Positions 325-63,261 are shown, counted from the stretch's first letter. The stretch: 63,300 nucleotides of DNA from an uncultured virus (IMG/VR IMGVR_UViG_3300008111_000027) (IMGVR_UViG_3300008111_000027:62001-125300), one strand, 5' to 3'. Made by a program: numbers and translations. Notes: generated by a model from the letters alone, not told the origin.

Positions 325-1443
325 ATGTCAACAACTGTCATTTCAAATACTGAAAAACAAAAATTGTACACCCAAGTGTTTCATTTATTGGGTTTACCCG
401 TTAGGGGAGTTGAACTCACAGAAGAACAAATGGACACCTTTTTAGAGTTGTCAGTATCTGAATATGAACAATATGTAAGTGATTGGTTGATTGAATCACA
501 GTGGTCAGCACTCGCTGGTCTTAATGTGGATACACAATCATTAACAAGAGCGTTTACCACAAGGAGTTTAGATTACGAGACACAATACACCCATTCTTAC
601 TCTAAGATTGTAGGTCTACAGACGGGTGGTAATAGTGAATTAAAAAAAGATTATATTTCATTATCTGCGAACACACAAACTTATGTGATTCCTGCTGGTA
701 GAGAGATTAATGAATTATTGTGGTTCTCAAGAGCGGAATTAACAGACTCAATTGTTGACCCATTTTTAGGCGGTTTTGGTGGTCTTGGGGGTGTTGCTTT
801 TGGTGGTGTCGGTGGATTTGCACAACAAGGAGCTTCGGGTTCTTATTTCTTATTACCAGCTTATGATTTATTATTAAGAATGGGCGATAGAAATATTAAA
901 AACCGATTAATTGGTGGTGACTTAACATATAGAATTACGGCAGGACCAAACGGAACAAAAATAGTTCACCTATACAATGTACCAGGTGGTAGATTTGATT
1001 TTGGTTCGATTCAAAACAATAGACAAAAAGTGTGGTATTGGTATTATGATACCACAGACCCCGATACTTGTTTAGACAAAAATAGTGGTATTGTAAAATT
1101 ACCTTCTGATGTTGAAACCGAAGAACTTACTTGGGACATGTTAAATAAACCAGCACAAAACTGGGTTAGGAAATATCTTATCGCATATTCAAAAGAAGGT
1201 TTAGGTAGAATATGGGGTAAATTCTCAGGTGATTTACAAGTACCTGATAGTTCTGTTAAGTTAGATTATTCAACATTGTTACAAGAAGGTAAAGATGAAA
1301 AATTAAAACTTATTGAGGAATTAATGAATCGTTTAGAAAGATTAAGACCCGATAAGTTAATGGAAAGAAAAGGAGCGGAAGCGGAAAACCTAAACAAAGC
1401 ACTTAAGTACAGACCTTTCCAATCACCATTTAACGTAATCTAA
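325..1443 (+). CDS. neck/head-completion protein (T4 gp13-like)
   Basis: LGxPVxxVEL N-terminus and W..KY....SKE.LGRIWGKF...Q.P C-terminus; ATG 325 follows a TATTTATT motif. Confidence 0.7.
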   Translation: MSTTVISNTEKQKLYTQVFHLLGLPVRGVELTEEQMDTFLELSVSEYEQYVSDWLIESQWSALAGLNVDTQSLTRAFTTRSLDYETQYTHSYSKIVGLQTGGNSELKKDYISLSANTQTYVIPAGREINELLWFSRAELTDSIVDPFLGGFGGLGGVAFGGVGGFAQQGASGSYFLLPAYDLLLRMGDRNIKNRLIGGDLTYRITAGPNGTKIVHLYNVPGGRFDFGSIQNNRQKVWYWYYDTTDPDTCLDKNSGIVKLPSDVETEELTWDMLNKPAQNWVRKYLIAYSKEGLGRIWGKFSGDLQVPDSSVKLDYSTLLQEGKDEKLKLIEELMNRLERLRPDKLMERKGAEAENLNKALKYRPFQSPFNVI

Positions 1444-4341
1444 TTAGATATTGGTTGCGTGATAAGCGTAATCATTACCGTTGGTCTGAATAATCTCATC
1501 CTCATTACTCTTGATACTTTCAGCTTGTAGAGATACCACTTTTCTATTCAAATCCACCCAATAAGGGTCTGCTAACTTCAAACTGTCCTCCACATACATA
1601 AAGAAAGGGTCTCTTTTTACTCTATTCCAAAATAGTACTTCACTATCAGATAGTGTCATTACCTCATCGTACTTATCTTGACCATCTTCCTTAAGAGGAA
1701 ACCCACTTACTAATTCACATTGAGCTCTTGTAAAATATTGTCTGTCTTCGGGTTTTTCAACCAAAATATCGTGACGTATTTCAGGGTTGAAAACAACTAA
1801 CAATGGTTCTATTCTCTTATTAAAATTAGTCAAGTATCTCGCCACGTTATAATCACCAGTCATGTCGGGATTGTTTGTTAACTCCTTTTCAGAAATCATG
1901 TAACAATTAATCTGTATGTAATTATCTGGCATTGGTTTACCGTGTAATTTAGTAAACTCCTCTTGTTGTTTTTTGGTTGGTTTTGTTATTTTCTGAACAT
2001 CACCGTCTGATTTTTTTTCACCATTATTAATATAGTAAATGGTCTCACCAAGACTGGCGGGATAGTTATTCTGAATAACCAACTCCATATGTGCTTGTCG
2101 AGACATCAAAGAACCAGCTTTCGTGGTTTTTTTAATATGTTTTTTGTAATCCTCGACCGATTGTTTTACACGAGACTTATTAGCCATTTTAGACAATGGG
2201 ATTTTCTTATCATAAATTTGTTGGACATATCTGTAATAAAGCTCAACAAAAGATAATCCATCGCCATTTAATAGGTGTTTTAATCCTTCATCTAAAAATT
2301 CTACAACATATTGTTGAAGTTTTTTTGATTTAATAGTATTCCCCGTAAGTTTGATTTTTTCTTTACCTTTTTTAAGAAGTTTAATGATGTAATTTTTTCT
2401 TGAAACGTTGATACACGCAGGTGCGGTGTAATCAATATCAAGACCCATTTCATTTCTCATAAAAGTGTCATTGAATTCCGCGGTATCTGCTTCGATACCA
2501 ACGTATTCTTTCCCTTCTTCTACTAATTCATTCAAACCTTTACCAATGTATATGTGGGTATCAATATCATCGGGAGTAGAAAAGTTAACACCGTCCGTAT
2601 CCATTACAAGAGGTTTATATCCTTTTTTCTCAAAGAACATAATCATCATACGAAGACACTGACGACCAGTACATGTGATGGTTTCACCCATGTTCATATC
2701 ACCCCATGGAAATACCTGTGGTGCGGACAAGGAACCAAAATAAGCGTTGATAAAAATCTTGATTGGTAATTGTTTACGGTCGTACATTTCTGCTTGTACG
2801 GGGTCACTATCTTTAAGTTCACCAGCAAGTCTTTTATATTTGATACGAATGTTTCTAAAGTACTTTAACATAGACTTCTGAACACCCATAACATCACATT
2901 CAGGAAATACATCATAAACCAATTGGATTGATGGGTAAAGAGATGCGTAGTCAAATTTTACAATATTCTTGGAGTATCCGACATTTAATAATCTTGAAAG
3001 ACCTCCTGTAATTGCTCTTTTTTCATCTTTGGTGGGTATTGCCAAACCGTTTTCATATGACCAAGCTAACATGATAATTTTCCAAAGTGTTGCAGTTCCC
3101 ATCGTTGCAATTCTTTCATAAGTTGTTGGTACCAATTTAGAAAGTAAGAACGTAGATTGAGAGAACGAATCATCCACAATCATTGTTTCGTACAAGTCAT
3201 CATCAAGATACTGTTCTACAATTCTTTGACCTGGCCATATTTCGTATTTATTAGGGTATTTGTCTAATAAATTTTCAGTACCGGGTTCACCAATCTTTTT
3301 GTATTTACCTGTTTTAGGGTTAACGTAATAACTATCATTTTCCAAATATATTTTTGAAATAAAAGCACCATCGACATATACCCGATTTGGTTTTTCTTTT
3401 TCCAAATATTGGGTAATGTATTTCAATCCCCAAGATTTAATTTCCGAATTAATTGCTTGTGCCCTTCTTACTGCGTGAGCGATATCAACAATATTATGAC
3501 CCCAAATGATATGTTGAGTGTAAGGTTCAATTTCATTTGCTAACTTTAATACACCTTCTTTTTGTTTAATCCCATCCGATGTGAGTATTGATGTACACTC
3601 AACAATATCAACACCTAAAATTTCGGCTCTTTTTAATATGAATGGAAAGTCAAATGACGCTGAATTATACCCACCAATAATTGTTGGTTTTAATTCTTTT
3701 ATTATTTCAAAAAATTCTTCGATACATTTTTTCTCACCATCAGGACCAAAAGCGGGTATGGTTTTTTGTAAACCACGGTTGTCCTTTACTCCAATAAGAA
3801 TTATCTCATTAGTCTCAGGTTCAAGGCCCGTGGTCTCGATATCGAATACAAATCGATGAACACCTGAATAATCATCAATACCTTTAAATAATCTTTTTTT
3901 CTTTTGAATAAGATATTGTTCTACAGGTGATAAAATAGTAAATAAGTGTTTAAAATTATCACCCCACGGGTCAATACCGCCTTGTTTGAAAAAACTAATT
4001 AATTCACGATAACCCTTTAGACTTTTTACTAAAAAATTTTGTCCATTTTCAAGTCTATCATTACCTTGGGTCTCAAGTTTATCAATAATAATACCGTATT
4101 CCCCCATTTTTTTCTTTTGTATGGATTTACTTCCTTGATAGAAATTACAAGAACTTAAATCACCAACCCATAGAAATGGAGTTAAAGTGTCGGGTTTTAC
4201 TACCTTACCCCTTACAGGGTCTTGAATAATTTTGTAAATTTTGTTGGTTTGGTAATCGTATTCAACCCCTACAATGTATTCTTCAGGGTCCCAACCATTT
4301 AAAAAACTTTCGATTACCTCTTGAGAAATAACTTCTGACAT
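1444..4341 (-). CDS. family B DNA polymerase
   Basis: ExoI FDIET, ExoII YNSASFD, polymerase motifs DYASLYPS, K..IN.YFG, DTDG. Confidence 0.95.
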   Translation of the reverse strand: MSEVISQEVIESFLNGWDPEEYIVGVEYDYQTNKIYKIIQDPVRGKVVKPDTLTPFLWVGDLSSCNFYQGSKSIQKKKMGEYGIIIDKLETQGNDRLENGQNFLVKSLKGYRELISFFKQGGIDPWGDNFKHLFTILSPVEQYLIQKKKRLFKGIDDYSGVHRFVFDIETTGLEPETNEIILIGVKDNRGLQKTIPAFGPDGEKKCIEEFFEIIKELKPTIIGGYNSASFDFPFILKRAEILGVDIVECTSILTSDGIKQKEGVLKLANEIEPYTQHIIWGHNIVDIAHAVRRAQAINSEIKSWGLKYITQYLEKEKPNRVYVDGAFISKIYLENDSYYVNPKTGKYKKIGEPGTENLLDKYPNKYEIWPGQRIVEQYLDDDLYETMIVDDSFSQSTFLLSKLVPTTYERIATMGTATLWKIIMLAWSYENGLAIPTKDEKRAITGGLSRLLNVGYSKNIVKFDYASLYPSIQLVYDVFPECDVMGVQKSMLKYFRNIRIKYKRLAGELKDSDPVQAEMYDRKQLPIKIFINAYFGSLSAPQVFPWGDMNMGETITCTGRQCLRMMIMFFEKKGYKPLVMDTDGVNFSTPDDIDTHIYIGKGLNELVEEGKEYVGIEADTAEFNDTFMRNEMGLDIDYTAPACINVSRKNYIIKLLKKGKEKIKLTGNTIKSKKLQQYVVEFLDEGLKHLLNGDGLSFVELYYRYVQQIYDKKIPLSKMANKSRVKQSVEDYKKHIKKTTKAGSLMSRQAHMELVIQNNYPASLGETIYYINNGEKKSDGDVQKITKPTKKQQEEFTKLHGKPMPDNYIQINCYMISEKELTNNPDMTGDYNVARYLTNFNKRIEPLLVVFNPEIRHDILVEKPEDRQYFTRAQCELVSGFPLKEDGQDKYDEVMTLSDSEVLFWNRVKRDPFFMYVEDSLKLADPYWVDLNRKVVSLQAESIKSNEDEIIQTNGNDYAYHATNI

Positions 4342-4428
4342 ATCGTATATTTTTGTTTTGACACATTTGCTTACAACACCGTGTTGTAGTTTGTCTTGCT
4401 AACAATTATACGAAATAATCATCACATA

Positions 4429-4797
4429 TCAAAATATGGTGATAAATAATTTTTCCTTTACAGGAAGAATCAGTTTTGTGGTTGGATTTAAGTTGGTATC
4501 TAAAAATTGAACTGTAACTTTACCTTCATACTTACCAATTCTTGCGGTTTGTGATTCTGTGAATTGGTGGGTAATATAATATTCGTCTGTGGTTTGATTG
4601 TACTTTTTGTCTCTTGTGGTGATTAAACAAGTTGAGTTTAGGATTTCAGGTTCACCTGTCTCAACATCAAACATATCAAAAGTAATATCACAACTTTCCA
4701 ACATATCGTTGAATCCGGATTTATCATTTTTTCCATCATCAATAAGTCTCATTTTTAATATCGGTTGTGAAGCACCTTGTCTTATAAAAAATTCCAT
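4429..4797 (-). CDS. BppU-N-like virion structural protein
   Basis: F.IRQG...P.L...L N-terminus, G.Y.G...V.F. Confidence 0.5.
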   Translation of the reverse strand: MEFFIRQGASQPILKMRLIDDGKNDKSGFNDMLESCDITFDMFDVETGEPEILNSTCLITTRDKKYNQTTDEYYITHQFTESQTARIGKYEGKVTVQFLDTNLNPTTKLILPVKEKLFITIF

Positions 4798-4802
4798 CTT
4801 AT

Positions 4803-5435
4803 TTAATATATTTTATTTAATACAAAAATGTCACTATATATTTTATTTGCGGGGTCACTTGAACTAAACTGAGCTGTTACTTCAATTGTATTTGAAACGG
4901 TGGTATCAAACGTAGTACTATTAACCGTATTGAACGCAAACCCACCTTGTGAACCATTAGATTGTTTTGTTGTATGAAATACACCAAGAGCAACTATACT
5001 GGCAACACCCGCAACACCGAGAGACCTAATTGTGAAATTTATAGAAAGTTGCCAAACGTCATCAACTGATGTTGTCATATTTTGAAGTCCAGAATCTGCT
5101 AAAATTACCGAACCAGTTTTAACTTTTATTCTTATATCATCACCATTTTTTGCGGATAAAAGACCACCAAAATCCGCTCTAAAGCTATCACCAACCCTAA
5201 ATCCATTAGCGGGAACACTTAAGGTTCCAACCCCACCGTCAATAACACTTAATTCTGATGTTGTACCACTTATAGTTACACTATTTCCTGTTTGAGAAAA
5301 CAAACCATAAACCGTTGGAAATGGAGCTAAAACACTATTTTTAACTCTATATGTGGTTCCACCTTGAGAAACAGCAAACTCCGCATTTGCGGTTAAACCT
5401 GTAAGTTCGGGTAATTGGGATATTGGTAAATTCAT
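4803..5435 (-). CDS. putative virion/tail fibre-associated protein
   Basis: ISQLPE N-terminal motif, beta-rich, late-promoter motif upstream. Confidence 0.5.
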   Translation of the reverse strand: MNLPISQLPELTGLTANAEFAVSQGGTTYRVKNSVLAPFPTVYGLFSQTGNSVTISGTTSELSVIDGGVGTLSVPANGFRVGDSFRADFGGLLSAKNGDDIRIKVKTGSVILADSGLQNMTTSVDDVWQLSINFTIRSLGVAGVASIVALGVFHTTKQSNGSQGGFAFNTVNSTTFDTTVSNTIEVTAQFSSSDPANKIYSDIFVLNKIY

Positions 5436-5464
5436 CTTATTTTATAAATATCTATTTTTATATT

Positions 5465-6391
5465 TTAATACGTTTGAGGTGTTTGATACGTATTTCTTGT
5501 GGTGGTAGAGTTAAATCCTGATACCGTATGTAACGTTGTCCAAGTTGTTCCATTATTACTACCGGCAATCGTCCATGATTTAGGGTCTCTACTTTCTTCA
5601 TCATTTGCGGTACCCCATCTATAACCCGTAAACGCCTTTGCACTACTAAATTGAAAAATAAAATTACTTACATTTCCATTTGTTACAAAATTCAAATCCA
5701 AAGCTTTAGTTGTTAAATTACCATCCGCTAACTTTGGAGGTTCCTCACCAACAGGGTTATTACCACTTGGGTTAGTTACCGTAACACCAGCCATACTTTG
5801 GTCTACACCACCTATTTGAAAAACGAATTCGGATGCTTGTATGCAATTCGCATTAGGTGGTGATGTTTTACTTTCAGTAATCTGCCACCTATAATATGTG
5901 TATGCGGGTCTTGATGGTGTTGGTGTTGGTGTTGGGGTAACCGACGGTGTTCTACTTGGTGTTATTGATGGTGTTACACTTGTTGAAGGTGTTCTACTTG
6001 GTGTAACAGACGGTGTAACAGATGGTGTTACACTTGGGGTTATAGACGGTGTAACAGATGGTGTTATCGATGGTGTTACACTTGTTGAAGGTGTCACTGT
6101 TGGGGTCGGAGATGGACCTGTTTCTATTTTTATTTTATAATAGTTTTCTTGGAAAATATAATCACCGTTTTCTTGTAGTAAAAAATTACCTGATAAATCT
6201 TCTACGTACAGTGTACAAGTACTACCAAACGCGGGAAAAAATAAAGAATATGTTCCATAAAAATAAGACGCAACATAATCATAGGGTAATACTTGGGTGC
6301 CAAGATTAATAGTACCACCAGTATCTGGATAATAAGTAATAACCGCACTTTGACCTGTATAATTTGTCGAAACTATTTTTAAAGTATCCAT
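5465..6391 (-). CDS. virion protein with Pro/Thr/Ser linker and discoidin (F5/8C)-like C-terminal domain
   Basis: (TPSV/TPSI)n linker; RDPKSW.I.GSN.G.TWT.L motif. Confidence 0.65.
5915..6110 (-). repeat. 12-nt-period coding repeat (TPSV/TPSI)
   Basis: tandem ggtgttacact/ggtgtaacaga units. Confidence 0.8.
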
Positions 6392-39368: not shown

Positions 39369-41387
39369 ATGTCAGTAGATTTTTTCGAAGAAGGAAACAC
39401 AACCAACCCAAAGAAAACAAGGAAGGGTTCAACCACCCCTATCCTTGATAACTTTTCAAGAGATTTGAATAAAATGGTTGAAGAGGGTAAAGTAGACCCC
39501 GTTATAGGTCGAGATAGTGAGGTCAAGAGAATTGCACAGATATTATCTCGAAAAAAGAAAAACAACGTAGTAATAGTTGGTGATGCGGGTGTTGGTAAAT
39601 CAGCGTTGGTTGAAAAATTAGCACAAATGATTGTCAAGGGAGATTGTCCATCAAATCTTTTAGATAAGAGAATAGTCTCGTTAGATTTAACATCCTTAGT
39701 TGCTGGCACGAAATATAGAGGACAGTTTGAAGAAAGGATTAAAGCTATTCTAAATGAATTACAGAACGAACCAAACGTAATTGTATTCATAGATGAGATT
39801 CACACTATGGTTGGAGCGGGTAATGCTAGTGGTTCAATGGATGCTGCTAATATTATGAAACCCGCTTTAGCAAGGGGTGAAATTCAATGTATTGGTGCAA
39901 CAACATTTGACGAATTTAAAAAACATATCGAAAAAGATGGTGCGTTGGTTCGTAGATTCCAAAAGATAATCCTTAAAGAACCAACTAAAGAAGAAACCGT
40001 ACAAATTCTAAATAACCTAAGAGATTCTTATCAAAACTTCCATAAAGTTTTTTACGAACCGGAAGTTTTTGAAACTATTGTTAGTCTCTCATCTAGATTT
40101 ATCACGGACCGTCAGTTCCCCGATAAGGCGATTGACGTAATGGACGAATTAGGTTCTGATAAAAAAATCAACACAAAGATTCCCGAAATTATTGAAAAAC
40201 TTAAAAAGGAATCTGATGATTTGAAGGATAAAAAAATACAAGTCGTTAAAAGTCAAAACTACGAACAGGCAGCTAAGTTACGTGATGAAGAAAGAAAGTT
40301 ATTAAGTAAGTTAGATGAAGAGAAAAAGAAATGGTTAGATAAACAAAAAGACAATAAAACACCAGTAACAATTGCTGATGTTTACGAGATAATATCACAA
40401 ATAACTGGAGTACCTCTTTCTAAAATTGATGACAGAGAAACAACAAATCTATTAAATTTAGAAGAAAAATTAAAATCTAAAGTGATTGGACAGGACGAGG
40501 CAATATCAATCATCTCTAAAGCCATTAGAAGAAATAGAGTTGGTATCAAAGATACCAATAAACCAATCGGTTCTTTTATTTTCTTAGGTTCAACAGGTGT
40601 TGGTAAAACGTATCTCGCTAAAAGTATCGCCGAACTACTTTTTGGGGATGCTGAAAAAGTAATTCGTGTTGACATGAGTGAGTACATGGAAAAACACAAT
40701 GTTGCTAAATTAATCGGGTCACCTCCAGGATATGTTGGTTATGATGAAGGTGGACAACTCACTGAAAAAATCAAAAATAATCCATTCTCAGTAGTTCTAT
40801 TTGATGAGGTTGAAAAAGCACATAAAGATGTGTTCAACATTCTACTTCAAATATTGGATGAGGGGCACTTGACAGATTCTTTTGGAAGAAAAGTGAATTT
40901 TACCAACACTATTGTGATTATGACATCTAACATCGGTGCTAAAAAAGTATCCGAATTCGGTAAGGGTGTTGGGTTTAGTTCGTCGTCATCAACGTCTCAA
41001 AACTATGAAGTCAAAAAGTCAATTGTTCAAAAATCACTCAAACAACATTTTAATCCTGAGTTTTTAAATCGAGTAGATGATATAATCAGTTTTAATTCTT
41101 TAGATAAAGATGTGATTAAAAAGATTATTGAGATTGAATTGAATAAATTAGTAATCCGACTTAAAGAAAAGAATTTTAAAGTTTCTTTTGATAAAACAAT
41201 TGTAGAAAGGATATCTGAATTGAATACACAAGAAGATTTTGGTGCGAGACCTATTAAAAGAATTATCCAAAATATGTGTGAAGATTATTTAAGTGATTCA
41301 ATTTTAAGAGGTGAAATCAAAGAAAACGAAACAATTAATTTGAAAATTAAAGACGGAGAAATAAAAATTTTTAAAAAAAAGGGGTAA
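39369..41387 (+). CDS. clpC: ClpC-like Clp/Hsp100 ATPase lacking the N-terminal domain
   Basis: two AAA+ modules (GDAGVGKS, GSTGVGKT), UVR-like YEQAAKLRDEE, VGF loop, GARP. Confidence 0.88.
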   Translation: MSVDFFEEGNTTNPKKTRKGSTTPILDNFSRDLNKMVEEGKVDPVIGRDSEVKRIAQILSRKKKNNVVIVGDAGVGKSALVEKLAQMIVKGDCPSNLLDKRIVSLDLTSLVAGTKYRGQFEERIKAILNELQNEPNVIVFIDEIHTMVGAGNASGSMDAANIMKPALARGEIQCIGATTFDEFKKHIEKDGALVRRFQKIILKEPTKEETVQILNNLRDSYQNFHKVFYEPEVFETIVSLSSRFITDRQFPDKAIDVMDELGSDKKINTKIPEIIEKLKKESDDLKDKKIQVVKSQNYEQAAKLRDEERKLLSKLDEEKKKWLDKQKDNKTPVTIADVYEIISQITGVPLSKIDDRETTNLLNLEEKLKSKVIGQDEAISIISKAIRRNRVGIKDTNKPIGSFIFLGSTGVGKTYLAKSIAELLFGDAEKVIRVDMSEYMEKHNVAKLIGSPPGYVGYDEGGQLTEKIKNNPFSVVLFDEVEKAHKDVFNILLQILDEGHLTDSFGRKVNFTNTIVIMTSNIGAKKVSEFGKGVGFSSSSSTSQNYEVKKSIVQKSLKQHFNPEFLNRVDDIISFNSLDKDVIKKIIEIELNKLVIRLKEKNFKVSFDKTIVERISELNTQEDFGARPIKRIIQNMCEDYLSDSILRGEIKENETINLKIKDGEIKIFKKKG

Positions 41388-52401: not shown

Positions 52402-52522
52402 AGTTGTAATTTAGTTTAGTTTATTTATTTGGTTTACTATAAATACCTCGGCAATCGAGATTGTTATATATATTTTTTTAAAAAAATTTCAAACTTTTCT
52501 TGTTTTTCAGCATACTTATTAT

Positions 52523-52530
52523 TATCTTTG
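52523..52530 (+). promoter_or_regulatory. Bacteroidota-type -7 promoter element of tRNA operon 1
   Basis: TATCTTTG matches TAnnTTTG. Confidence 0.7.
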
Positions 52531-52560
52531 TAAAAGATTTTAAAATTAAATAAAACTTCA

Positions 52561-52650
52561 ATGAGACGCTTTACACATACAATGTCATTTACAATCTGTT
52601 CAAAATGGGCGGAGGTGGCTGATATTTGCATGTCCCGAGGTGTCTTGTAA
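52561..52650 (+). CDS. leader peptide 1 (29 aa, MRRFTHTMSFTICSKWAEVADICMSRGVL)
   Basis: ATG..TAA between promoter and terminator; codons match operon 1 anticodons; contains antiterminator TCCCGAGGT. Confidence 0.8.
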   Translation: MRRFTHTMSFTICSKWAEVADICMSRGVL

Positions 52651-52677
52651 GTTGTTTAGTTTAAAACGATATAAAGG

Positions 52678-52706
52678 AACCTCGGGAGAAATCTCGAGGT
52701 TTTTTT
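52678..52706 (+). terminator. attenuator terminator of tRNA operon 1
   Basis: AACCTCGGGA GAAA TCTCGAGGTT + U tract. Confidence 0.88.
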
Positions 52707-52713
52707 GTTTTAT

Positions 52714-52783
52714 GGGCCTGATGTCAACGGCAGACCGTCTGATTTGCAATCAGAACGATTGGGTTCGATTCCCACAGTGTCCA
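52714..52783 (+). tRNA. tRNA-Ala(TGC), acceptor stem imperfect
   Basis: TCTGA TTTGCAA TCAGA arm; G3:U70; GTTCGATTC. Confidence 0.75.
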
Positions 52784-52784
52784 C

Positions 52785-52822
52785 AAATCTGGGTGTCACA
52801 GGTTCAATTCCTGTCGGTACCA
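52785..52822 (+). pseudogene. 3' half of a tRNA, probably tRNA-Phe(GAA)
   Basis: AAA TCTGG GTGTC ACAGG TTCAATT CCTGT CGGTACC A; no 5' half. Confidence 0.65.
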
Positions 52823-52827
52823 CATTT

Positions 52828-52901
52828 GTCTTCGTAGCTCAATTGGTTAGAGCACCACACTTTTAATGTGGGGGTTATGCGTTCGAGTCGCATCGGGGAC
52901 A
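52828..52901 (+). tRNA. tRNA-Lys(TTT)
   Basis: CCACA CTTTTAA TGTGG. Confidence 0.93.
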
Positions 52902-52902
52902 C

Positions 52903-53039
52903 AAAGGTTGATTGGGGAATGATACATCAATATCTCGAGAGTGAATATTGGATGATGTATTCGGAGTTTGCAGATATTCACCTGAAGTAACGCCAATCGT
53001 AAAAGAGGATGTCCACTGAACCATCTTCCTCTTTCCTTT
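52903..53039 (+). ncRNA. unknown structured RNA A
   Basis: AAAGG/CCTTT closing stem, GATTGG/CCAATC, ATACATCA/TGATGTAT, AAGAGGA/TCCTCTT. Confidence 0.5.
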
Positions 53040-53042
53040 CAT

Positions 53043-53115
53043 AGTTCCTTAGCTCAGTTGGGAGAGCGTCTGCCTTACATGCAGAGGGTCGTCGGTTCGA
53101 ATCCGACAGGGACTA
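53043..53115 (+). tRNA. tRNA-Val(TAC)
   Basis: TCTGC CTTACAT GCAGA. Confidence 0.93.
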
Positions 53116-53123
53116 CACAATAC

Positions 53124-53194
53124 ACAGGTGTAGTGAAAGGGTATCATACCGGTCTCCAAAACCGTTGTTGGGAGTTCGAATCTCTCCACCTGTG
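53124..53194 (+). tRNA. tRNA-Trp(CCA)
   Basis: CGGT CTCCAAA ACCG. Confidence 0.9.
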
Positions 53195-53216
53195 CAAACT
53201 TTTAAAAATAAACGAC

Positions 53217-53645
53217 ATGGAAAGAAATGATAACATCAACGCCGTCAAAATGAAATTTGAAGCGGAGAAAATGAAACTAAAAGAAGAGAGGGAAAGAATG
53301 ATTAGGAATCATTGGGAGAATTTACCAAAGATTAATAATCCCGAAGATGTCCCAACTCTTCCAAGAGTGGATGAAAAAGAATGGAGAGAGTTCTATGTTC
53401 CGAAACTAATTGACGCAGGTGCGATTCCTAAAAAAGATTTAGTAAATGGTCAAATTTATATTGGTGAACATAGAAATACCACAATCGCAAGATGGAATCA
53501 AGAGACAAACAAATTTATACACATGAGATATAAGTTTGGTTGGAGAGAGGATGATTGTAACCATTTTGAAGATGATGATGGATTTGCATTGTTCGTTCCA
53601 ATTAGATTGGGGACCCAAGAAGAATGGGATGAACGAATTAAGTAA
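53217..53645 (+). CDS. hypothetical protein within tRNA operon
   Basis: ATG 53217; the ORF-track extension overlaps tRNAs. Confidence 0.7.
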   Translation: MERNDNINAVKMKFEAEKMKLKEERERMIRNHWENLPKINNPEDVPTLPRVDEKEWREFYVPKLIDAGAIPKKDLVNGQIYIGEHRNTTIARWNQETNKFIHMRYKFGWREDDCNHFEDDDGFALFVPIRLGTQEEWDERIK

Positions 53646-53646
53646 T

Positions 53647-53721
53647 GGTTCTTTGGTGTAATGGATAGCACGCAACGCTACGGACGTTGAAGTAAGGGTT
53701 CGAGTCCTTTAGGAATCACCA
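53647..53721 (+). tRNA. tRNA-Arg(ACG)
   Basis: CAACG CTACGGA CGTTG; encoded CCA. Confidence 0.92.
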
Positions 53722-53722
53722 C

Positions 53723-53796
53723 GGTCCTGTACCCAAGTGGCTTAAGGGGGGAGTCTGCAAAACTCTTATTCGGTGGTTCGAATCCACTCGGGACCT
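53723..53796 (+). tRNA. tRNA-Cys(GCA)
   Basis: GGAGT CTGCAAA ACTCT; U73. Confidence 0.92.
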
Positions 53797-53858
53797 CAAT
53801 ATAAGGTGTGAGACTTATAATGGTTCATTATAAGGTTTGAACCTTATAATTTATAAAT

Positions 53859-53936
53859 GGTAGATATAGTTCAGTTGGTTAGAACGTCTGATTGTGGTCC
53901 AGAAGGTCGTCGGTTCGAATCCGATTATTTACCCCA
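53859..53936 (+). tRNA. tRNA-His(GTG)
   Basis: loop TTGTGGT; G-1 and C73; CCA. Confidence 0.9.
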
Positions 53937-53939
53937 AAT

Positions 53940-54016
53940 TGGAATATAGCTCAATTGGTTAGAGCATTCGTCTGATACGCGAAAGGTTATAGGTTCGATT
54001 CCTATTATTCCAACCA
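53940..54016 (+). tRNA. tRNA-Ile(GAT)
   Basis: TTCGT CTGATAC GCGAA; CCA. Confidence 0.92.
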
Positions 54017-54021
54017 AACAT

Positions 54022-54099
54022 TGCGGGATGCGTAGAAAGTGGTCATCTCGTCAGTCTCATAAGCTGAAGTTCCCGGTTCGAGTCCGGGTCCCGCAACCA
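54022..54099 (+). tRNA. tRNA-Met(CAT), probably elongator
   Basis: TCAGT CTCATAA GCTGA; CCA. Confidence 0.85.
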
Positions 54100-54139
54100 A
54101 ACATTTTGAAATATGGAATTTACTTCTTATATTTTATTT

Positions 54140-54150
54140 GTTCTTTGAAA
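54140..54150 (+). promoter_or_regulatory. boxA-like antitermination element
   Basis: GTTCTTTGAAA; same motif at 55385, 61092, 62841. Confidence 0.6.
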
Positions 54151-54155
54151 TATAT

Positions 54156-54227
54156 CGTGGGGTAGAGCAGTGGTAGCTCGTTAGGCTCATAACCTAAAGG
54201 TCGTCGGTTCGAATCCGACCCCCGCAA
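54156..54227 (+). tRNA. tRNA-fMet(CAT), initiator-like
   Basis: C1:A72 mismatch; TTAGG CTCATAA CCTAA. Confidence 0.85.
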
Positions 54228-54233
54228 CAAATG

Positions 54234-54316
54234 GTCATAATTAGGGTCGAGCCACATCTTGCCACGGTTATGACAAGGGTCAGAAGGAACAGAGGTGGCC
54301 GTGACTACTCTGACCC
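54234..54316 (+). ncRNA. unknown two-hairpin RNA B
   Basis: GTCATAA/TTATGAC and GGGTCAGA/TCTGACCC stems with complementary loops. Confidence 0.5.
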
Positions 54317-54322
54317 ACTATT

Positions 54323-54396
54323 GCCTCCTTAGCTCAGTTGGCCAGAGCAGCTGATTTGTAATCAGCGGGTCGTTGGTTCGAATCCGACAGGAGGCT
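54323..54396 (+). tRNA. tRNA-Thr(TGT)
   Basis: GCTGA TTTGTAA TCAGC. Confidence 0.93.
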
Positions 54397-54402
54397 CCGA
54401 TT

Positions 54403-54474
54403 GGTCTCATAGTTAATCGGCTATAATATCGCCCTGTCACGGCGAAGTGCCGGGTTCGATTCCCGGTGGGACCG
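54403..54474 (+). tRNA. tRNA-Asp(GTC)
   Basis: TCGCC CTGTCAC GGCGA. Confidence 0.93.
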
Positions 54475-54477
54475 CAA

Positions 54478-54683
54478 TGAGTAAGAGATACTCAGAGTCT
54501 TCGAATCAAGACTTTAAGAATGATTCCGCAGAAAGTCTACGGCGCGAGTGGGACTTCATGGGAACAAAGGAGAGCGACACACCTCCTCCCAGTAGTGTTG
54601 ACTTTTTTTAACGGGGACGCCCTTCAGGTTGTTTGAAAGAAAATAAACCGAAATGACTACTCACCGTAATCTCAGGTGGGGTA
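54478..54683 (+). ncRNA. unknown multi-hairpin RNA C
   Basis: series of hairpins (TGAGTA/TACTCA, AGTCTT/AAGACT, TACTCACC/GGTGGGGTA), GC-richer than the genome, no ORF. Confidence 0.5.
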
Positions 54684-54686
54684 ATT

Positions 54687-54774
54687 GGAGAGTTGGTAGA
54701 GTTGGTTTATTGCACCTGACTTGAAATCAGGAGAACTCGTGAGGGTTCCGGGGGTTCGAATCCCTCACTCTCCT
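54687..54774 (+). tRNA. tRNA-Ser(TGA)
   Basis: CCTGA CTTGAAA TCAGG; long variable arm. Confidence 0.92.
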
Positions 54775-54780
54775 CAAATT

Positions 54781-54852
54781 GGCCCGGTCGTCTATCGGTT
54801 AGGACACGTCCCTTTCACGGATGAAAGCGGGGTTCGATTCCCCGTCGGGCTA
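54781..54852 (+). tRNA. tRNA-Glu(TTC)
   Basis: CGTCC CTTTCAC GGATG. Confidence 0.92.
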
Positions 54853-54880
54853 CACTGAAATTAAATTAAAAAAAACCAAT

Positions 54881-55123
54881 ATGTTAGAAAAAATTTTAGA
54901 ACAATACGAAGATGAACAAATCTTAATTGCTGATGGATTTGATGATGCGGTAATAGGAATTGAAACATCTTCAATGAGATTAATCTATTCTGTTGAGAAG
55001 TGTATCACTATACTTATGAATCAAGGAATGGATATGACAGAAGCGGTAGAATATTTTGAATTTAATGTTTCCGGTTCTTACGTTGGTGAAAAGACTCCAA
55101 TATGGTGTGAAGATTTATTTTAA
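54881..55123 (+). CDS. conserved phage hypothetical protein
   Basis: ADGFDDAVIG...EAVEYFEFNV.G.YVGE.TP. Confidence 0.75.
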   Translation: MLEKILEQYEDEQILIADGFDDAVIGIETSSMRLIYSVEKCITILMNQGMDMTEAVEYFEFNVSGSYVGEKTPIWCEDLF

Positions 55124-55162: not shown

Positions 55163-55170
55163 TATCTTTG
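55163..55170 (+). promoter_or_regulatory. Bacteroidota-type -7 promoter element of tRNA operon 2
   Basis: TATCTTTG; TTG about 20 nt upstream. Confidence 0.7.
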
Positions 55171-55187
55171 TGATAGTTATAAACAAA

Positions 55188-55292
55188 ATGATGAAAATGG
55201 TTTACATACAACAACCCTTGAACAACCCACTAAGTGGTAATGGGAGAGGTATATATTTATGTGACCCATGTTCGGAGTTTTTAAAAGTGTAA
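55188..55292 (+). CDS. leader peptide 2 (34 aa, MMKMVYIQQPLNNPLSGNGRGIYLCDPCSEFLKV)
   Basis: ATG..TAA between promoter and terminator; codons match operon 2 anticodons; contains antiterminator GTTCGGAGTTTT. Confidence 0.8.
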   Translation: MMKMVYIQQPLNNPLSGNGRGIYLCDPCSEFLKV

Positions 55293-55313
55293 GGAACTTA
55301 ACCTACTAATAAG

Positions 55314-55346
55314 AAGACCCGAACTCAAAAAAAGTTCGGGTTTTTT
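55314..55346 (+). terminator. attenuator terminator of tRNA operon 2
   Basis: AAGACCCGAACT CAAAAAA AGTTCGGGTTTT + U tract. Confidence 0.88.
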
Positions 55347-55412
55347 GTTTTTAAGATTTTGTTGTTTATATTTTGATTAGATTTGTTCTTTGACATATTG
55401 GAATTGGTAAAT

Positions 55413-55497
55413 GCCGAGGTGATGGAATGGTAGACATGAGGGACTTAAAATCCCTTGGACAGTAATGTTCGTGTGGGTTCGACTCCCATCCTCGGTA
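55413..55497 (+). tRNA. tRNA-Leu(TAA)
   Basis: AGGGA CTTAAAA TCCCT; long variable arm. Confidence 0.93.
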
Positions 55498-55499
55498 CA

Positions 55500-55700
55500 A
55501 AAATGAAAAACTCCTTACAGAGGACGGATTAGCACCGTTGAAAGAAACTTTGGCTCTTGGGATTAGCTACCCAAATGAGTTACATGACCCAAAGTGAACT
55601 GTGATGGACCCTGCTCTGATGTGCACGTCAACAGGTGGACAGTAAACTATGTCCAATCAAATCTACAACTACGGTGAGCGTAGAAGGAGGTTTTCATTTT
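55500..55700 (+). ncRNA. unknown ~200-nt structured RNA D
   Basis: AAAATGAAAAACTCCTT / AAGGAGGTTTTCATTTT closing stem enclosing several hairpins. Confidence 0.6.
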
Positions 55701-55703
55701 AAT

Positions 55704-55775
55704 GGGCCCATAGTTAAAGGGATATAACTTCTCACTTCTAATGAGATGTTCCAAGTTCGAGTCTTGGTGGGCCTA
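55704..55775 (+). tRNA. tRNA-Arg(TCT)
   Basis: TCTCA CTTCTAA TGAGA. Confidence 0.92.
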
Positions 55776-55777
55776 CT

Positions 55778-55917
55778 AAGATAGTGGTCACTCTTACAAT
55801 GAAAGTCGACAAAGTAGTTGTAAGGTTCATAGTGTTCATCACCCTCGGCCGGTGCACTGATAAAACTCAGAAGAAGCCGTTAAGATTGGAGCGAGACGGG
55901 TACTCCATCACTATCTT
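55778..55917 (+). ncRNA. unknown ~140-nt structured RNA E
   Basis: AAGATAGTG/CACTATCTT closing stem; CTTACAA/TTGTAAG; TGGAG/CTCCA. Confidence 0.55.
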
Positions 55918-55924
55918 TTTTAAT

Positions 55925-55998
55925 AGGGAAGTAGCGCAGTTGGTTAGCGCACCTGGTTTGGGACCAGGGGGTCGCAGGTTCGAGTCCTGTTTTCCCTA
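55925..55998 (+). tRNA. tRNA-Pro(TGG)
   Basis: CCTGG TTTGGGA CCAGG. Confidence 0.93.
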
Positions 55999-56003
55999 CA
56001 AAT

Positions 56004-56075
56004 TCCTTGATAGCTCAGTGGTAGAGCAAACGGCTGTTAACCGTTGGGTCCCAAGTTCGAATCTTGGTCGGGGAG
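56004..56075 (+). tRNA. tRNA-Asn(GTT)
   Basis: AACGG CTGTTAA CCGTT. Confidence 0.93.
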
Positions 56076-56082
56076 CAAAAAA

Positions 56083-56146
56083 ATCGCTGATGGAAACATC
56101 GAAGGTGTGTAATGCTAGCAACACCGTAGGTTAAGCGATGTCCTAC
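56083..56146 (+). ncRNA. unknown small junction/pseudoknot RNA F
   Basis: ATCGCT/AGCGAT, GATG-GAAA-CATC, GGTGT/ACACC, GTAGG/CCTAC. Confidence 0.45.
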
Positions 56147-56151
56147 ACTTT

Positions 56152-56232
56152 GCCGAAGTGGTGGAATGGTAGACACACGACACTTAGGATGTCGCGCGTA
56201 ATTGCGTGGGGGTTCGAGTCCCTTCTTCGGTA
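56152..56232 (+). tRNA. tRNA-Leu(TAG)
   Basis: CGACA CTTAGGA TGTCG. Confidence 0.92.
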
Positions 56233-56238
56233 CAACAA

Positions 56239-56321
56239 TGAAAGGTGGGTGAGTGGTTAAAACCGGCAGACTGTAAATTTGCTCTCTTCGGGGTACGGGG
56301 GTTCGAATCCCTCCCTTTCAA
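56239..56321 (+). tRNA. tRNA-Tyr(GTA)
   Basis: GCAGA CTGTAAA TTTGC; long variable arm. Confidence 0.9.
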
Positions 56322-56335
56322 CAAAAAGTAATAGT

Positions 56336-56887
56336 ATGGAAAGAAATAACATTATTAAAAGTATGATGGATTCAATCACTCCTGAAATGGAGGAAAGGTT
56401 CAAACAAGAAAGAATCGAGTGGAAAAATAGTTTAACCGCAGAATATCAACTTGGTCATTATGTTGGTTTGGAAATCGTTCACAATTATCTCCCAACCCTA
56501 TCAACTGATATGTTACAAACTCGTAATGTCATTGAGGTATCTGAAGAAGATTCATTAGAGAATGAAAGATTGGACACCGAATGGTATGTAACAACACAAC
56601 ATGGTGGGGAATGGAATGGTAAGGATGAAAGTGGCAATAAAGAAAAATGGGACTTATACCACCAACACAATAAAATGTTGGAAAGGAAATACCTACCCAA
56701 TCCTCTTTATTGTCACATGGGTGTTTTGAACATTCGAGATATGGATGATTTCAAAAAAGGTTTAAGATTTGCATTATGGGATTGTGATATGTGTTCTTAT
56801 AACATCGAACTTGAGAACATAAAAATCTATGACGAAGAACATTTAATGAGTACGATTATAGAGTTTTCGTTGGATTTGGTGGTGTAG
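56336..56887 (+). CDS. hypothetical protein within tRNA operon
   Basis: ATG 56336; stop lies inside the next tRNA. Confidence 0.7.
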   Translation: MERNNIIKSMMDSITPEMEERFKQERIEWKNSLTAEYQLGHYVGLEIVHNYLPTLSTDMLQTRNVIEVSEEDSLENERLDTEWYVTTQHGGEWNGKDESGNKEKWDLYHQHNKMLERKYLPNPLYCHMGVLNIRDMDDFKKGLRFALWDCDMCSYNIELENIKIYDEEHLMSTIIEFSLDLVV

Positions 56888-56954
56888 CTCAATTGGTGAG
56901 AGCAGGACGCTTATACCGTCAAGGTTATGGGTTCAAATCCCGTCACCACTACCA
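56878..56954 (+). tRNA. tRNA-Ile(TAT)
   Basis: GACG CTTATAC CGTC; CCA. Confidence 0.88.
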
Positions 56955-56956
56955 TT

Positions 56957-57030
56957 GGTCCCTTAGCTCAGTTGGTTAGAGCACCCGACTCATAATCGGT
57001 AGGTCCACGGTTCAAGCCCGTGAGGGACCA
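56957..57030 (+). tRNA. tRNA-Ile2(CAT), lysidine type (inferred)
   Basis: CCGA CTCATAA TCGG; GGTCCCTTAGCTCAG body typical of Ile2. Confidence 0.8.
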
Positions 57031-57055
57031 CGAGATATTTATATATAAAAAAATC

Positions 57056-57508
57056 ATGGGAATTGAATTAAAAAAGAAAAAACAACTTATCGAAAGATTA
57101 AACAAAAGATTATTATCTGAAGCCGAAATGGAGTGTCCTAAAGCAACTCAAGATTTAGAGTTGAACACTAATAATAGAGACAAATCAATAAAAGCGGATT
57201 ATATAAAATATGGTCCACTTAATATTGATGAACCCGGTGATTATTGGGAAATGGTTGCATCCGATTGGAATACGACTGTTGAAGCCGCTAAAAAATCACT
57301 ATGTGGTAATTGTGTTGCATTTGATATATCACCAAGAATGGATGAATGTATGCCAGGTTCGGTTTCTGATGATAGTGGTAGATTAGGATACTGTTGGATG
57401 CATCACTTTAAATGTCACTCCGCAAGAACATGTAAAACATGGGCAAAAGGTGGTCCGATTACCGAAAATACGGTGTCATATGAGTGGCAACAAAAAAATC
57501 AAAAATAA
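57056..57508 (+). CDS. Cys/His-rich hypothetical protein
   Basis: CGNCVAFD, GYCWMHHFKCHSARTC; late-promoter motif 57036-57043. Confidence 0.72.
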   Translation: MGIELKKKKQLIERLNKRLLSEAEMECPKATQDLELNTNNRDKSIKADYIKYGPLNIDEPGDYWEMVASDWNTTVEAAKKSLCGNCVAFDISPRMDECMPGSVSDDSGRLGYCWMHHFKCHSARTCKTWAKGGPITENTVSYEWQQKNQK

Positions 57509-57577
57509 TATCATCATGTGGTCGCACCCTTAACTCCAAAACCTGTTAAGGAAATCGTTATGGGAAGACCACTCCAC

Positions 57578-57649
57578 GCGATAGTCGTATAACGGTTATT
57601 ATACCACCTTGCCAAGGTGGGGACGATGGTTCAATTCCATTCTGTCGCT
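57578..57649 (+). tRNA. tRNA-Gly(GCC)
   Basis: CCACC TTGCCAA GGTGG. Confidence 0.92.
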
Positions 57650-57696
57650 CACTTTTATCGGACAACCAATATTTATTATTACATAATGGTTGTCCA

Positions 57697-58101
57697 ATGA
57701 GAAATAGAGAAAAAAAAGAAAAACAATGTTTGAATTGTGGTTGTGAAATTCCTAATAGGAATCTTTACTGTAATAATAAGTGTCAATTCGAATATCAAAG
57801 AAAAAATATTTTCAAATCTTTAGAGGAAAATAATTTTGAAAGATATACAAGATGTGACACAATCCACGAGATAACAAAAAAATATTTGATAGAAAAATTT
57901 GGTGAAAAATGTATGGTTTGTGAATGGGATAAAGTGAATGAACATACAGGGATAGTCCCAATCCAAATTAATCATATAGATGGTAACCCACATAATCATG
58001 ATTTATCAAATGTTGAGTTACTCTGTCCTAACTGTCATTCTTTAACAGAATTTTTTGGTCGAAGAGGTAAGGGTAGGAAATGGAGATATCAAAGTAAGTA
58101 G
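57697..58101 (+). CDS. HNH homing endonuclease
   Basis: CLNC..YC..KC; C..C; HIDGN..N....N..LLCPNCH. Confidence 0.88.
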   Translation: MRNREKKEKQCLNCGCEIPNRNLYCNNKCQFEYQRKNIFKSLEENNFERYTRCDTIHEITKKYLIEKFGEKCMVCEWDKVNEHTGIVPIQINHIDGNPHNHDLSNVELLCPNCHSLTEFFGRRGKGRKWRYQSK

Positions 58102-58165
58102 ACCTTAAAAAGGGCCCTTCCGTTGCGTACGAAAACGGCTTGTTGGGCCCGGGTCTACCTTTTAA

Positions 58166-58237
58166 GCGAATATCGTATAACGGTCATTACTTCAGACTTC
58201 CAATCTGAAGATGCCAGTTCGATTCTGGCTATTCGCT
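58166..58237 (+). tRNA. tRNA-Gly(TCC)
   Basis: TCAGA CTTCCAA TCTGA. Confidence 0.92.
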
Positions 58238-58242
58238 CATAT

Positions 58243-58313
58243 TGCCCTTTCGTCTAATGGCAGGACATGTGGTTTTGGTCCACAGTGTGGAGGTTCGAAT
58301 CCTTCAGGGGCAA
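58243..58313 (+). tRNA. tRNA-Gln(TTG)
   Basis: TGTGG TTTTGGT CCACA; U1:A72. Confidence 0.9.
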
Positions 58314-58334
58314 CTAATCAATTCCAATATAACA

Positions 58335-58420
58335 GGAAGGTTACCCAAGTTGGTGAAGGGGTCAGTTTGCTAAACTGATAGGGTGTCACAGCCGCGAGGG
58401 TTCGAGCCCCTCACCTTCCG
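58335..58420 (+). tRNA. tRNA-Ser(GCT)
   Basis: TCAGT TTGCTAA ACTGA; long variable arm. Confidence 0.92.
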
Positions 58421-58447
58421 CAGAGTACTTATAGAATATAGAATGGT

Positions 58448-61079: not shown

Positions 61080-61107
61080 ACCCACCCATCAGTTCTTTGA
61101 AATATTA

Positions 61108-62827: not shown

Positions 62828-62854
62828 CTATCTTTGTCCTGTTCTTTGACTTAT

Positions 62855-63253
62855 GGGGGTGTATGGAATCGATTGGCGTACATATGGTAAATGGGCACGT
62901 AGTCAGACTTCATCTATGACTTTAATCCATGGTGGAAATTTTTAAGCGGCAACGTTTACAACAACATGGAAGTAGCAGGTCTTCTTGCAACTTCTAAAGT
63001 TGCGGCCTAATTGGTCGTAACTGACGGGTCGATGGACACATAACCTTGGAACAGAAGTCCTTACGGTGTGATACCACCTTAGAGTGTCAAAGGTCTCGTT
63101 CAGAGTGCTACCTATTAAAGTGAACTCGACACAGTTGATGGTAACGATGTCAAAATAGGAACCACCTATTTGTCGGTTATGAATAATCGAATAAACGTGT
63201 AGTCCATTTATGGTATTGCGAGCAAGACGCGGGTTCGAAACCCGCCACCTCCA
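62855..63253 (+). ncRNA. ssrA: tmRNA
   Basis: GGGGGTG/CACCTCC-A acceptor with G3:U, T-arm GCGGG TTCGAAA CCCGC, tag ORF 62948-63010 GNVYNNMEVAGLLATSKVAA*. Confidence 0.92.
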
Positions 63254-63261
63254 CAAAAAAG

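Follow-up and report, generated by a model that had tools for sequence, protein, structure and literature searches.

A candidate multivalent leader-peptide attenuator preceding a phage tRNA operon

We analyzed a 63,300-nucleotide (nt) stretch of DNA from an uncultured virus (IMG/VR IMGVR_UViG_3300008111_000027, positions 62001-125300), referred to here as the window, in which a block of transfer RNA (tRNA) genes, operon 1, is preceded by a short leader open reading frame (ORF) and a terminator hairpin. The window is the second half of one 125,300-base record, and positions are counted from its first letter. It contains PHROGs matches for DNA polymerase, major head protein, portal, large terminase and Lon-like protease, and the source is therefore a large tailed phage; the nearest cultured relatives of the portal protein are in Microcystis phage Mel-JY01 (43%) and Flavobacterium phage immuto (37%). 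Between 52714 and 58421 on the plus strand lie 26 tRNA genes, 25 detected by ARAGORN and one by Rfam only (52714-52783). Whether phage tRNA genes compensate for codon usage or replace depleted host tRNAs has been debated for decades, and to our knowledge barely anything is known of how their expression is controlled.

Leader 1 and tRNA operon 1

The following features lie at the head of the tRNA array.

52500..52530, plus strand: promoter-like site of the Bacteroidota type, with TTG (52500-52502), 20 nt and TATCTTTG (52523-52530)
52543..52662, plus strand: long 1:2 hairpin, formed by the second ORF half on one side and by the 5' untranslated region, start codon and first ORF half on the other
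52561..52650, plus strand: leader ORF 1, ATG at 52561, 29 codons plus TAA (52648-52650), peptide MRRFTHTMSFTICSKWAEVADICMSRGVL
52633..52646, plus strand: antiterminator segment (segment 2), TCCCGAGGT at 52633-52641 plus a 4-base-pair (bp) extension at 52643-52646
52672..52707, plus strand: intrinsic terminator 1, arms ACCTCGGGA (52679-52687) and TCTCGAGGT (52692-52700), GAAA loop, U7
52714..54853, plus strand: tRNA operon 1, from ARAGORN and Rfam

The leader ORF opens at the first AUG after the putative promoter-like box, and transcription is predicted to start near 52537. The arrangement TTG-N20-TATCTTTG fits the Bacteroidota promoter consensus. The box was unchanged across 9 aligned relatives, was over-represented in the window (11 occurrences versus 4.1 expected, 0/100 shuffles) and was found also upstream of leader 2 (described below), ORF 59007 and the transfer-messenger RNA (tmRNA). 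The generic pattern TAnnTTTG showed no enrichment in the window (97 versus 96.7 expected) and is no evidence by itself.

A first-pass annotation of this DNA had proposed a leader ORF at 52561 with a perfect 9-bp antiterminator and a terminator about 28 nt after the stop codon. All three elements are present in the sequence: the ATG stands at 52561 and the TAA at 52648-52650, TCCCGAGGT (52633-52641) is the exact reverse complement of the terminator 5' arm ACCTCGGGA (52679-52687), and 28 nt separate the stop codon from that arm. The RNA has three mutually exclusive pairings. The 1:2 hairpin (52543-52662) folds at -37.3 kcal/mol (z score -4.8, 0/200 shuffles) and includes the antiterminator segment in its second half. 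The antiterminator segment itself is placed 7-15 nt upstream of the stop codon, and its duplex with the terminator 5' arm reaches -17.6 kcal/mol (0/300 shuffles as good); the whole antiterminator hairpin (52630-52690, 9 bp plus 4 more) reaches -25.3 kcal/mol (z score -6.8, 0/200 shuffles). The terminator fold, at -19.6 kcal/mol (z score -5.1), is less stable than the antiterminator hairpin. It lies directly upstream of operon 1, where tRNA-Ala begins 7 nt past the T run. The sequence-level features of an attenuator, namely a promoter-like box, a first-AUG ORF, a 1:2 hairpin, an antiterminator segment and an abutting terminator, are all present, and they are conserved in the relatives described below.

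Operon 1 encodes, in order, Ala(UGC, atypical), a Phe fragment, Lys, Val, Trp, ORF 53217-53645, Arg(ACG), Cys, His, Ile(GAU), Met, Met, Thr, Asp, Ser(UGA) and Glu. The first gene, tRNA-Ala(UGC) at 52714-52783, scored 31.8 bits in Rfam against a cut-off of 29 and was missed by ARAGORN; judged by eye its acceptor stem is mismatched, and other relatives carry at this position a different tRNA-Ala that scores well. The annotation had also described Phe as present only as a fragment, which agrees with our comparison: tRNA-Phe (about 52784-52827) retains the 3' part only, about 70 nt being deleted relative to the related locus L089. In L089 the leader is 100% identical to leader 1 of the window, and tRNA-Phe is whole and preceded by a GTTCTTTGA motif. 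Because this identical leader stands before an intact tRNA-Phe, the TTT codons of leader 1 correspond to a tRNA gene lost recently.

Leader codons and tRNA content

We compared the codons of leader 1 with the anticodons of the tRNA genes behind it. As the annotation had stated, codons 3-24 specify R, F, T, H, M, S, I, C, K, W, A, E, V, D and nothing else, with AGA at codon 2 as an exception. This set matches the operon 1 specificities, and codon 2 differs freely in relatives (AGA, ATA, ACA, AAA). Under strict wobble, leader 1 covers 14/14 operon 1 anticodons and 5/12 of those of operon 2. Among 400,000 random ORFs of 28 codons drawn from the codon usage of the phage, only 4 attained the full 14/14. 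An unbroken run of 17 codons in leader 1 covers 13 anticodons, a value that none of the 400,000 random ORFs reached (maximum 12). Furthermore, the six frames of the 125-kb genome contain 473 ATG ORFs of 20-45 codons, and leader 1 was the single top outlier of them against operon 1, with 13 anticodons versus 8 for the next best. The proposed sensor codons are 3-21, and each of the 14 specificities has at least one codon there.

The remaining tRNA genes follow a second unit of the same layout.

55163..55347, plus strand: candidate second attenuator, with box TATCTTTG at 55163-55170 and an ORF at 55188-55292
55188-55292, plus strand: leader ORF 2, peptide MMKMVYIQQPLNNPLSGNGRGIYLCDPCSEFLKV
55269-55280, plus strand: antiterminator segment of the second unit
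55317-55325 and 55333-55341, plus strand: arms of terminator 2, followed by a U tract
55413..58421, plus strand: tRNA operon 2, with interspersed ORFs and a freshwater-1 RNA

Operon 2 comprises tRNAs Leu(UAA), Arg(UCU), Pro, Asn, Leu(UAG), Tyr, Ile(UAU), Met, Gly(GCC), Gly(UCC), Gln and Ser(GCU). Leader 2 covers 12/12 of these down to isoacceptors and 8/14 of operon 1. Run coverage of at least 10, as in leader 2, occurred in 10/400,000 random ORFs, and leader 2 was again the top outlier against its own operon among the 473 small genome ORFs (10, next best 8). The two leaders divide amino acids at the isoacceptor level: leader 1 carries CGC, TCA and ATC/ATT, and leader 2 carries AGA, AGT and ATA.

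Relatives were collected from IMG/VR with two protein-anchored and three pattern scans, which yielded many loci with related tRNA arrays. A metagenome scan with a loose 15-base degenerate pattern gave one true homolog (L211) among at least 120 stretches. BLAST against cultured and deposited phages returned tRNA-level matches only, with no record covering 80% of the query, and a search for cultured relatives through ORF 53217-53645 gave none that were useful as a cultured model.

Among the close homologs, the leader 1 ORF kept the same frame and stopped at the same place in 12/12 distinct sequences, one lineage having a 6-nt in-frame insertion; one lineage of leader 2 homologs has one +3 and one -3 indel. 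The kept frame and the in-frame indels suggest that the leaders are translated. The annotation had named loss of the alternative pairing in relatives as one outcome that would speak against its proposal. The pairing was instead retained, with 9/9 antiterminator pairs in 10 of the 12 homologs and 8/9 in the other 2 (92% of cells pair). In L021 and L022 a C-G to U-A double change leaves it perfect, a single compensatory event among 12 close sequences. Terminator 1 was conserved in 12/12. The middle of the leader 1 peptide (TICSKWAEVAD) is well conserved in close relatives. The leaders of L085/L008 have ACA and ATG in swapped order, and their Arg codon is no longer codon 3 but codon 20; the codon set was kept, the sequence was not. 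In L092/L094 (about 2920-3100) leader 1 is decayed: the ORF start and core are kept, segment 2 is deleted, the terminator has no U tract left, and the tRNA operon downstream is no longer there, having been replaced. This decay of the element along with its operon counts in favour of an attenuator.

We then asked how widely leader codons follow tRNA content, using an automatic screen for a small ATG ORF followed by a hairpin with a T run and a tRNA within 120 nt. The screen yielded 46 distinct leader/terminator/tRNA units. With the start codon excluded from the count, 401/416 downstream tRNA species had a cognate leader codon and 35/46 units were fully covered; several of the uncovered cases concern Met, or Leu-UAG behind a leader with CTT. 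Clustering of the leaders at 60% peptide identity, with one unit taken per cluster, left 16 representative units, which are not fully independent, as some are distant homologs of one another. We subjected these to a permutation test in which the best candidate ORF was chosen for each leader in matched and mismatched pairings alike. The mean score F was 0.657 for matched pairs versus 0.444 (standard deviation 0.030) for permuted ones, with 0/200,000 permutations as high, and coverage was 0.961 in matched versus 0.653 in mismatched pairs.

Individual pairs of relatives display the same correspondence, most clearly L273 and L274. The leaders of these two are of equal length and share their first codons and their last 11 codons, and the body between them is rewritten. 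Relative to L273, L274 has lost the CAT, AAA, TGT and CGT codons along with the His, Lys, Cys and Arg tRNAs, and has gained AAT, CCG/CCT and CAA codons along with Asn, Pro and Gln tRNAs. Four further units are listed here.

L275: leader MKMLLCHISMSLSHSMS.., with TTG and TTA both in the leader; tRNAs Cys, Met, His, Ser, Leu-CAA and Leu-UAA
L281: leader ..GRPQQHPQ.., with CAG and CAA both in the leader; tRNAs Arg, Pro, His, Gln-CUG and Gln-UUG
L290: Ser-rich leader; three Ser tRNAs
L283: leader covering 17/17; 17 tRNAs

In the 16 units, cognate codons made up 63% of the ORF body versus 28% of the last eight codons (Fisher 2e-11). The best pairing of the leader to the terminator 5' arm lay within the last 25 nt of the ORF in 16/16 units, and the leader/arm duplex clearly beat shuffles (at most 8 of 300 as good) in 8 of them.

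A proposed mechanism and its rivals

We propose that leader 1 belongs to a ribosome-mediated, trp-type attenuator that senses the decoding speed of the operon's own codons and thereby controls a phage tRNA operon, a reading to which we assign a probability of roughly 0.7. The phage would then probably make the operon 1 tRNAs only when ribosomes read the leader codons slowly. From sequence features we infer translation of the ORF, the promoter, termination and read-through, the direction of the switch and its physiological trigger. Transcription would start near 52537, and a ribosome would load on the first AUG (52561) as the polymerase proceeds. When codons 3-21 are decoded fast, the ribosome would reach the end of the ORF and cover 52633-52641, allowing the terminator (52679-52700 plus U7) to fold and end transcription 7 nt short of the first tRNA. 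If the leader is not translated, the 1:2 hairpin would lock 52633-52641 and the terminator would form again. A ribosome slowed on any sensor codon would leave 52633-52641 free to pair with the terminator 5' arm, and with the antiterminator formed the polymerase would read through into the tRNA genes. The net effect would be negative feedback, the tRNA block being made while its codons decode slowly and switched off once supply is restored. Slow decoding could stem from host tRNAs that are scarce, degraded in infection or cut by a defence nuclease, and the leader may sense the summed decoding time of its whole codon set rather than that of one tRNA.

To model the switch, we folded the RNA through the terminator stem at equilibrium, under constraints that masked the ribosome positions. 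With no ribosome the terminator had a probability of 0.97, the 1:2 protector pairing leading to the termination fold. A single ribosome with its aminoacyl (A) site on codons 2-8 gave the antiterminator a probability of 0.97-0.99. Queued ribosomes extended antiterminator formation to codons 12-18 or, with another assumed footprint, 12-19, and when all RNA 5' of the leading ribosome was treated as unavailable, as in a kinetic view, the antiterminator won up to codon 20-21. On these models, stalls up to codon 20-21 would need queued ribosomes or kinetic control to give read-through. The overall logic is that of the trp attenuator, and the distribution of cognate codons and the site of the arm pairing in the 16 representative units fit it.

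Contigs of RNA library X15 bridge leader, terminator and first tRNA (52631-52787 and 55181-55428). They are weakly consistent with read-through, being contigs from which ends and levels cannot be read and in which DNA carry-over is possible. All four RNA libraries, X15-X18, consist of contigs in which starts and ends are unreadable and uncovered stretches (for example 53263-53583) prove nothing, and most of their matches are 90-95% alike and so come from tRNAs of other organisms.

Several results weigh against the attenuator as proposed. In the equilibrium folds a single ribosome beyond codon 8 allowed the terminator to form, since segment 2 is captured again by the freed 5' region, and read-through was thereby confined to stalls at codons 2-8. 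Codons 9-11 gave no antiterminator even with queued ribosomes, and an A site anywhere from codon 22 to the stop gave the terminator, so that stalls at codons 22-24 cannot act. Most specificities are represented by one or two codons, without the tandem runs of classical leaders, and sensitivity to any one tRNA may therefore be low. The match between codons and genes also has gaps: the window leader retains two TTT codons despite its truncated tRNA-Phe, L020 is without Phe, Lys and Val tRNAs yet its leader keeps TTT, AAA and GTG, and L007 is without Ile(UAU) and Gly(GCC) yet its leader keeps ATA and GGT. Covariation is thin, with one compensatory event in the antiterminator across the 12 homologs; for the 1:2 hairpin it did not exceed shuffles in these sequences, although 89% of cells pair, and so gives no support either way. 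In the other 8 of the 16 representative units, 22 to 191 of 300 shuffles folded as well as the leader/arm duplex. A simple consensus terminator scan lists the second terminator (55312-55346) and not terminator 1. At the second unit the antiterminator is weaker than the terminator (-15.6 versus -18.3 kcal/mol), and the stretch from terminator 2 to tRNA-Leu contains a promoter-like TAnnTTTG box (window 55378-55398), as in most relatives, so that operon 2 may also be transcribed independently of attenuator 2. Finally, two cultured Bacteroidota phages with tRNA genes lack such an element. Flavobacterium phage immuto carries 4 annotated tRNAs, with no leader/terminator unit before them, and Bacteroides phage crAss001, with 23 tRNAs (ARAGORN) and a promoter-like box directly before the array, has no hairpin with a T run anywhere in 600-6200. 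The device is not universal.

The limits of the folding bear on a rival in which the leader is translated and codon-matched and yet operates a different switch, either control of ribonuclease (RNase) processing or stability through opening of the hairpin, or a feed-forward in which good decoding leads to more tRNA. Equilibrium folding backs the classical read-out for early codons only, the very stable 1:2 hairpin (-37.3 kcal/mol) sequesters the start codon, and the conserved GTTCTTTGA before several stable RNAs may be a processing signal. We nevertheless regard this rival as unlikely, since a canonical hairpin with U7, set 7 nt before a tRNA and faced by a perfect 9-bp competitor, is the anatomy of termination control, and the position of the antiterminator is the same in 16/16 units. 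A ribosome at the stop codon also leads the RNA to fold into the terminator, not into the read-through form.

It is considerably less probable that the locus is a self-contained small gene, encoding a functional 29-amino-acid peptide or a small RNA that ends at the terminator, with the tRNAs transcribed from elsewhere and the codon match a by-product. The conserved peptide middle in close relatives would suit such a gene, as would its own promoter-like box and terminator and the further promoter-like box past terminator 2. However, the gap from the U tract (52706) to tRNA-Ala (52714) is too short for a promoter, and the codon match would have to be an extreme coincidence at two operons and in 16 diverged units. 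Peptide sequences also diverge without constraint, the codon set keeping step with the tRNAs, as in L273 versus L274, and a pure RNA would not hold its frame through indels. Direct sensing of tRNAs by the leader RNA, with triplets pairing to anticodons in the manner of a T-box with many specifiers and no ribosome involved, appears the most improbable of the rivals. It would account for triplets that match anticodons at the isoacceptor level; against it, the triplets share one frame between AUG and stop and indels keep that frame, no T-box or other riboswitch model matches even at expectation values (E) up to 5, and three-base pairing without a ribosome is too weak. We therefore retain the trp-type attenuator as the preferred reading.

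Known systems, implications and neighbouring features

We compared the proposed element with the attenuators of amino-acid operons (E. coli/Salmonella trpL, hisL, pheL and leuL, and the multivalent thrL and ilvL). Like them, it has a short ORF in the leader, after the putative promoter and before the first gene, with regulatory codons 5' of a segment that pairs with the protector or the terminator 5' arm. Also in common are an intrinsic terminator before the first gene and the proposed sensing of decoding speed, that is, of charged-tRNA supply. The phage element differs in what it would control, tRNA genes instead of biosynthetic enzymes, and is therefore set apart from known operon leaders as a variant. 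Its leader carries 14 specificities (up to 17 in L283), whereas known leaders use tandem runs for one to three amino acids, and it is matched at the anticodon level. Additionally, it is phage-borne, has a promoter-like site of the Bacteroidota type and is without a Shine-Dalgarno sequence. No Rfam leader family matched at its gathering threshold. Two candidates were rejected as sub-threshold, conferring no membership: His_leader (RF00514), with 25.4 of 49 bits on 52579-52709, and Thr_leader (RF00506), with 22.1 of 55 bits on 55271-55349. T-box riboswitches likewise sense tRNA status through an antiterminator/terminator switch upstream of translation-related genes, but a T-box works without an ORF, by direct binding of a single uncharged tRNA, whereas the phage element has a conserved ORF; the T-box model gave no match, even at E up to 5.

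Phage tRNAs have been described as replacements for host tRNAs lost in infection or defence (eLife 2023, PMC10264068; Nature 2024, PMC11464382). In the portions of these papers that were accessible, the subject is tRNA function and not a sensor that switches the array on. A full-text literature search, from which subscription journals largely fell outside, returned no account of leader-peptide or attenuator control of tRNA operons.

Beyond this locus, we consider it somewhat probable, with less confidence than for leader 1 itself, that Bacteroidota phages run their tRNA arrays as self-regulating supply circuits. Each block would have one multivalent attenuator with one test codon per tRNA, would be switched on when host tRNAs are scarce, degraded or cut, and would have its leader rewritten as tRNA genes are gained, lost or moved. 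If the proposal is true, the phage treats tRNA genes as an on-demand supply, with a sensor built from the very codons that the tRNAs read, and tRNA arrays are linked directly to tRNA depletion in infection or defence. RNA genes would also join enzyme operons as targets of leader-peptide attenuation, and the number of amino acids sensed would rise from between one and three to 14-17. In practice, the codon list of a leader would predict which tRNAs share one transcription unit, and the element would serve as a small, naturally occurring reporter of how fast chosen codons are decoded.

The promoter-like TAnnTTTG box before tRNA-Leu is conserved in position and not in sequence among relatives (L005, L006, L021, L022, L122, L261, L267, L271), and the motif GTTCTTTGACAT follows it at once or after 4-7 nt. 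A longer motif, (T/C)(T/A)GTTCTTTGA(A/C)NTAT, lies directly 5' of stable RNA genes, namely tRNA-Met, tRNA-Leu and tmRNA, and of tRNA-Phe in relatives; it had 5 matches versus 0.97 expected (0/100 shuffles) and may serve either in processing or as a promoter element. GTTCTTTGA was found also after tRNA-Cys in Flavobacterium phage immuto. Sites of the longer motif and other features of the array and its surroundings are as follows.

54138-54153, 55383-55398, 61090-61105 and 62839-62854 in the window, and about 644-652 in L293: (T/C)(T/A)GTTCTTTGA(A/C)NTAT sites
53217-53645, 54881-55123, 56336-56887 and 57056-57508: four small conserved ORFs in the array
55600-55661: freshwater-1 RNA (RF02979, 84.7 bits), between tRNA-Leu(UAA) and tRNA-Arg(UCU), inside operon 2
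62829-63254: tmRNA (62855-63254), tag peptide GNVYNNMEVAGLLATSKVAA, with a TATCTTTG box upstream as for both leaders

The freshwater-1 RNA is an insert in the phage tRNA array, because L007, L018 and L020 have 5-9 nt at that place. The ORFs between tRNA genes comprise an HNH endonuclease (57697-58101) and the four small conserved ORFs without known function; two of the interspersed ORFs match PHROG families of unknown function. The spacer between tRNA-Asp and tRNA-Ser (54476-54686, 211 nt) is conserved at its ends (a GAGTA...TACTC hairpin and CGTAATCTCAGG), varies in the middle and may be a structured RNA. Within it, an ORF of 44 codons (54477-54611), rich in Ser and Glu codons and placed before tRNA-Ser and tRNA-Glu, was considered as a third leader and rejected, as its frame is not conserved in relatives and no canonical terminator follows. 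Elsewhere in the window, the phage encodes a Lon-like ATP-dependent protease of 672 amino acids (39369-41387; phrog_4871, E 1e-244).

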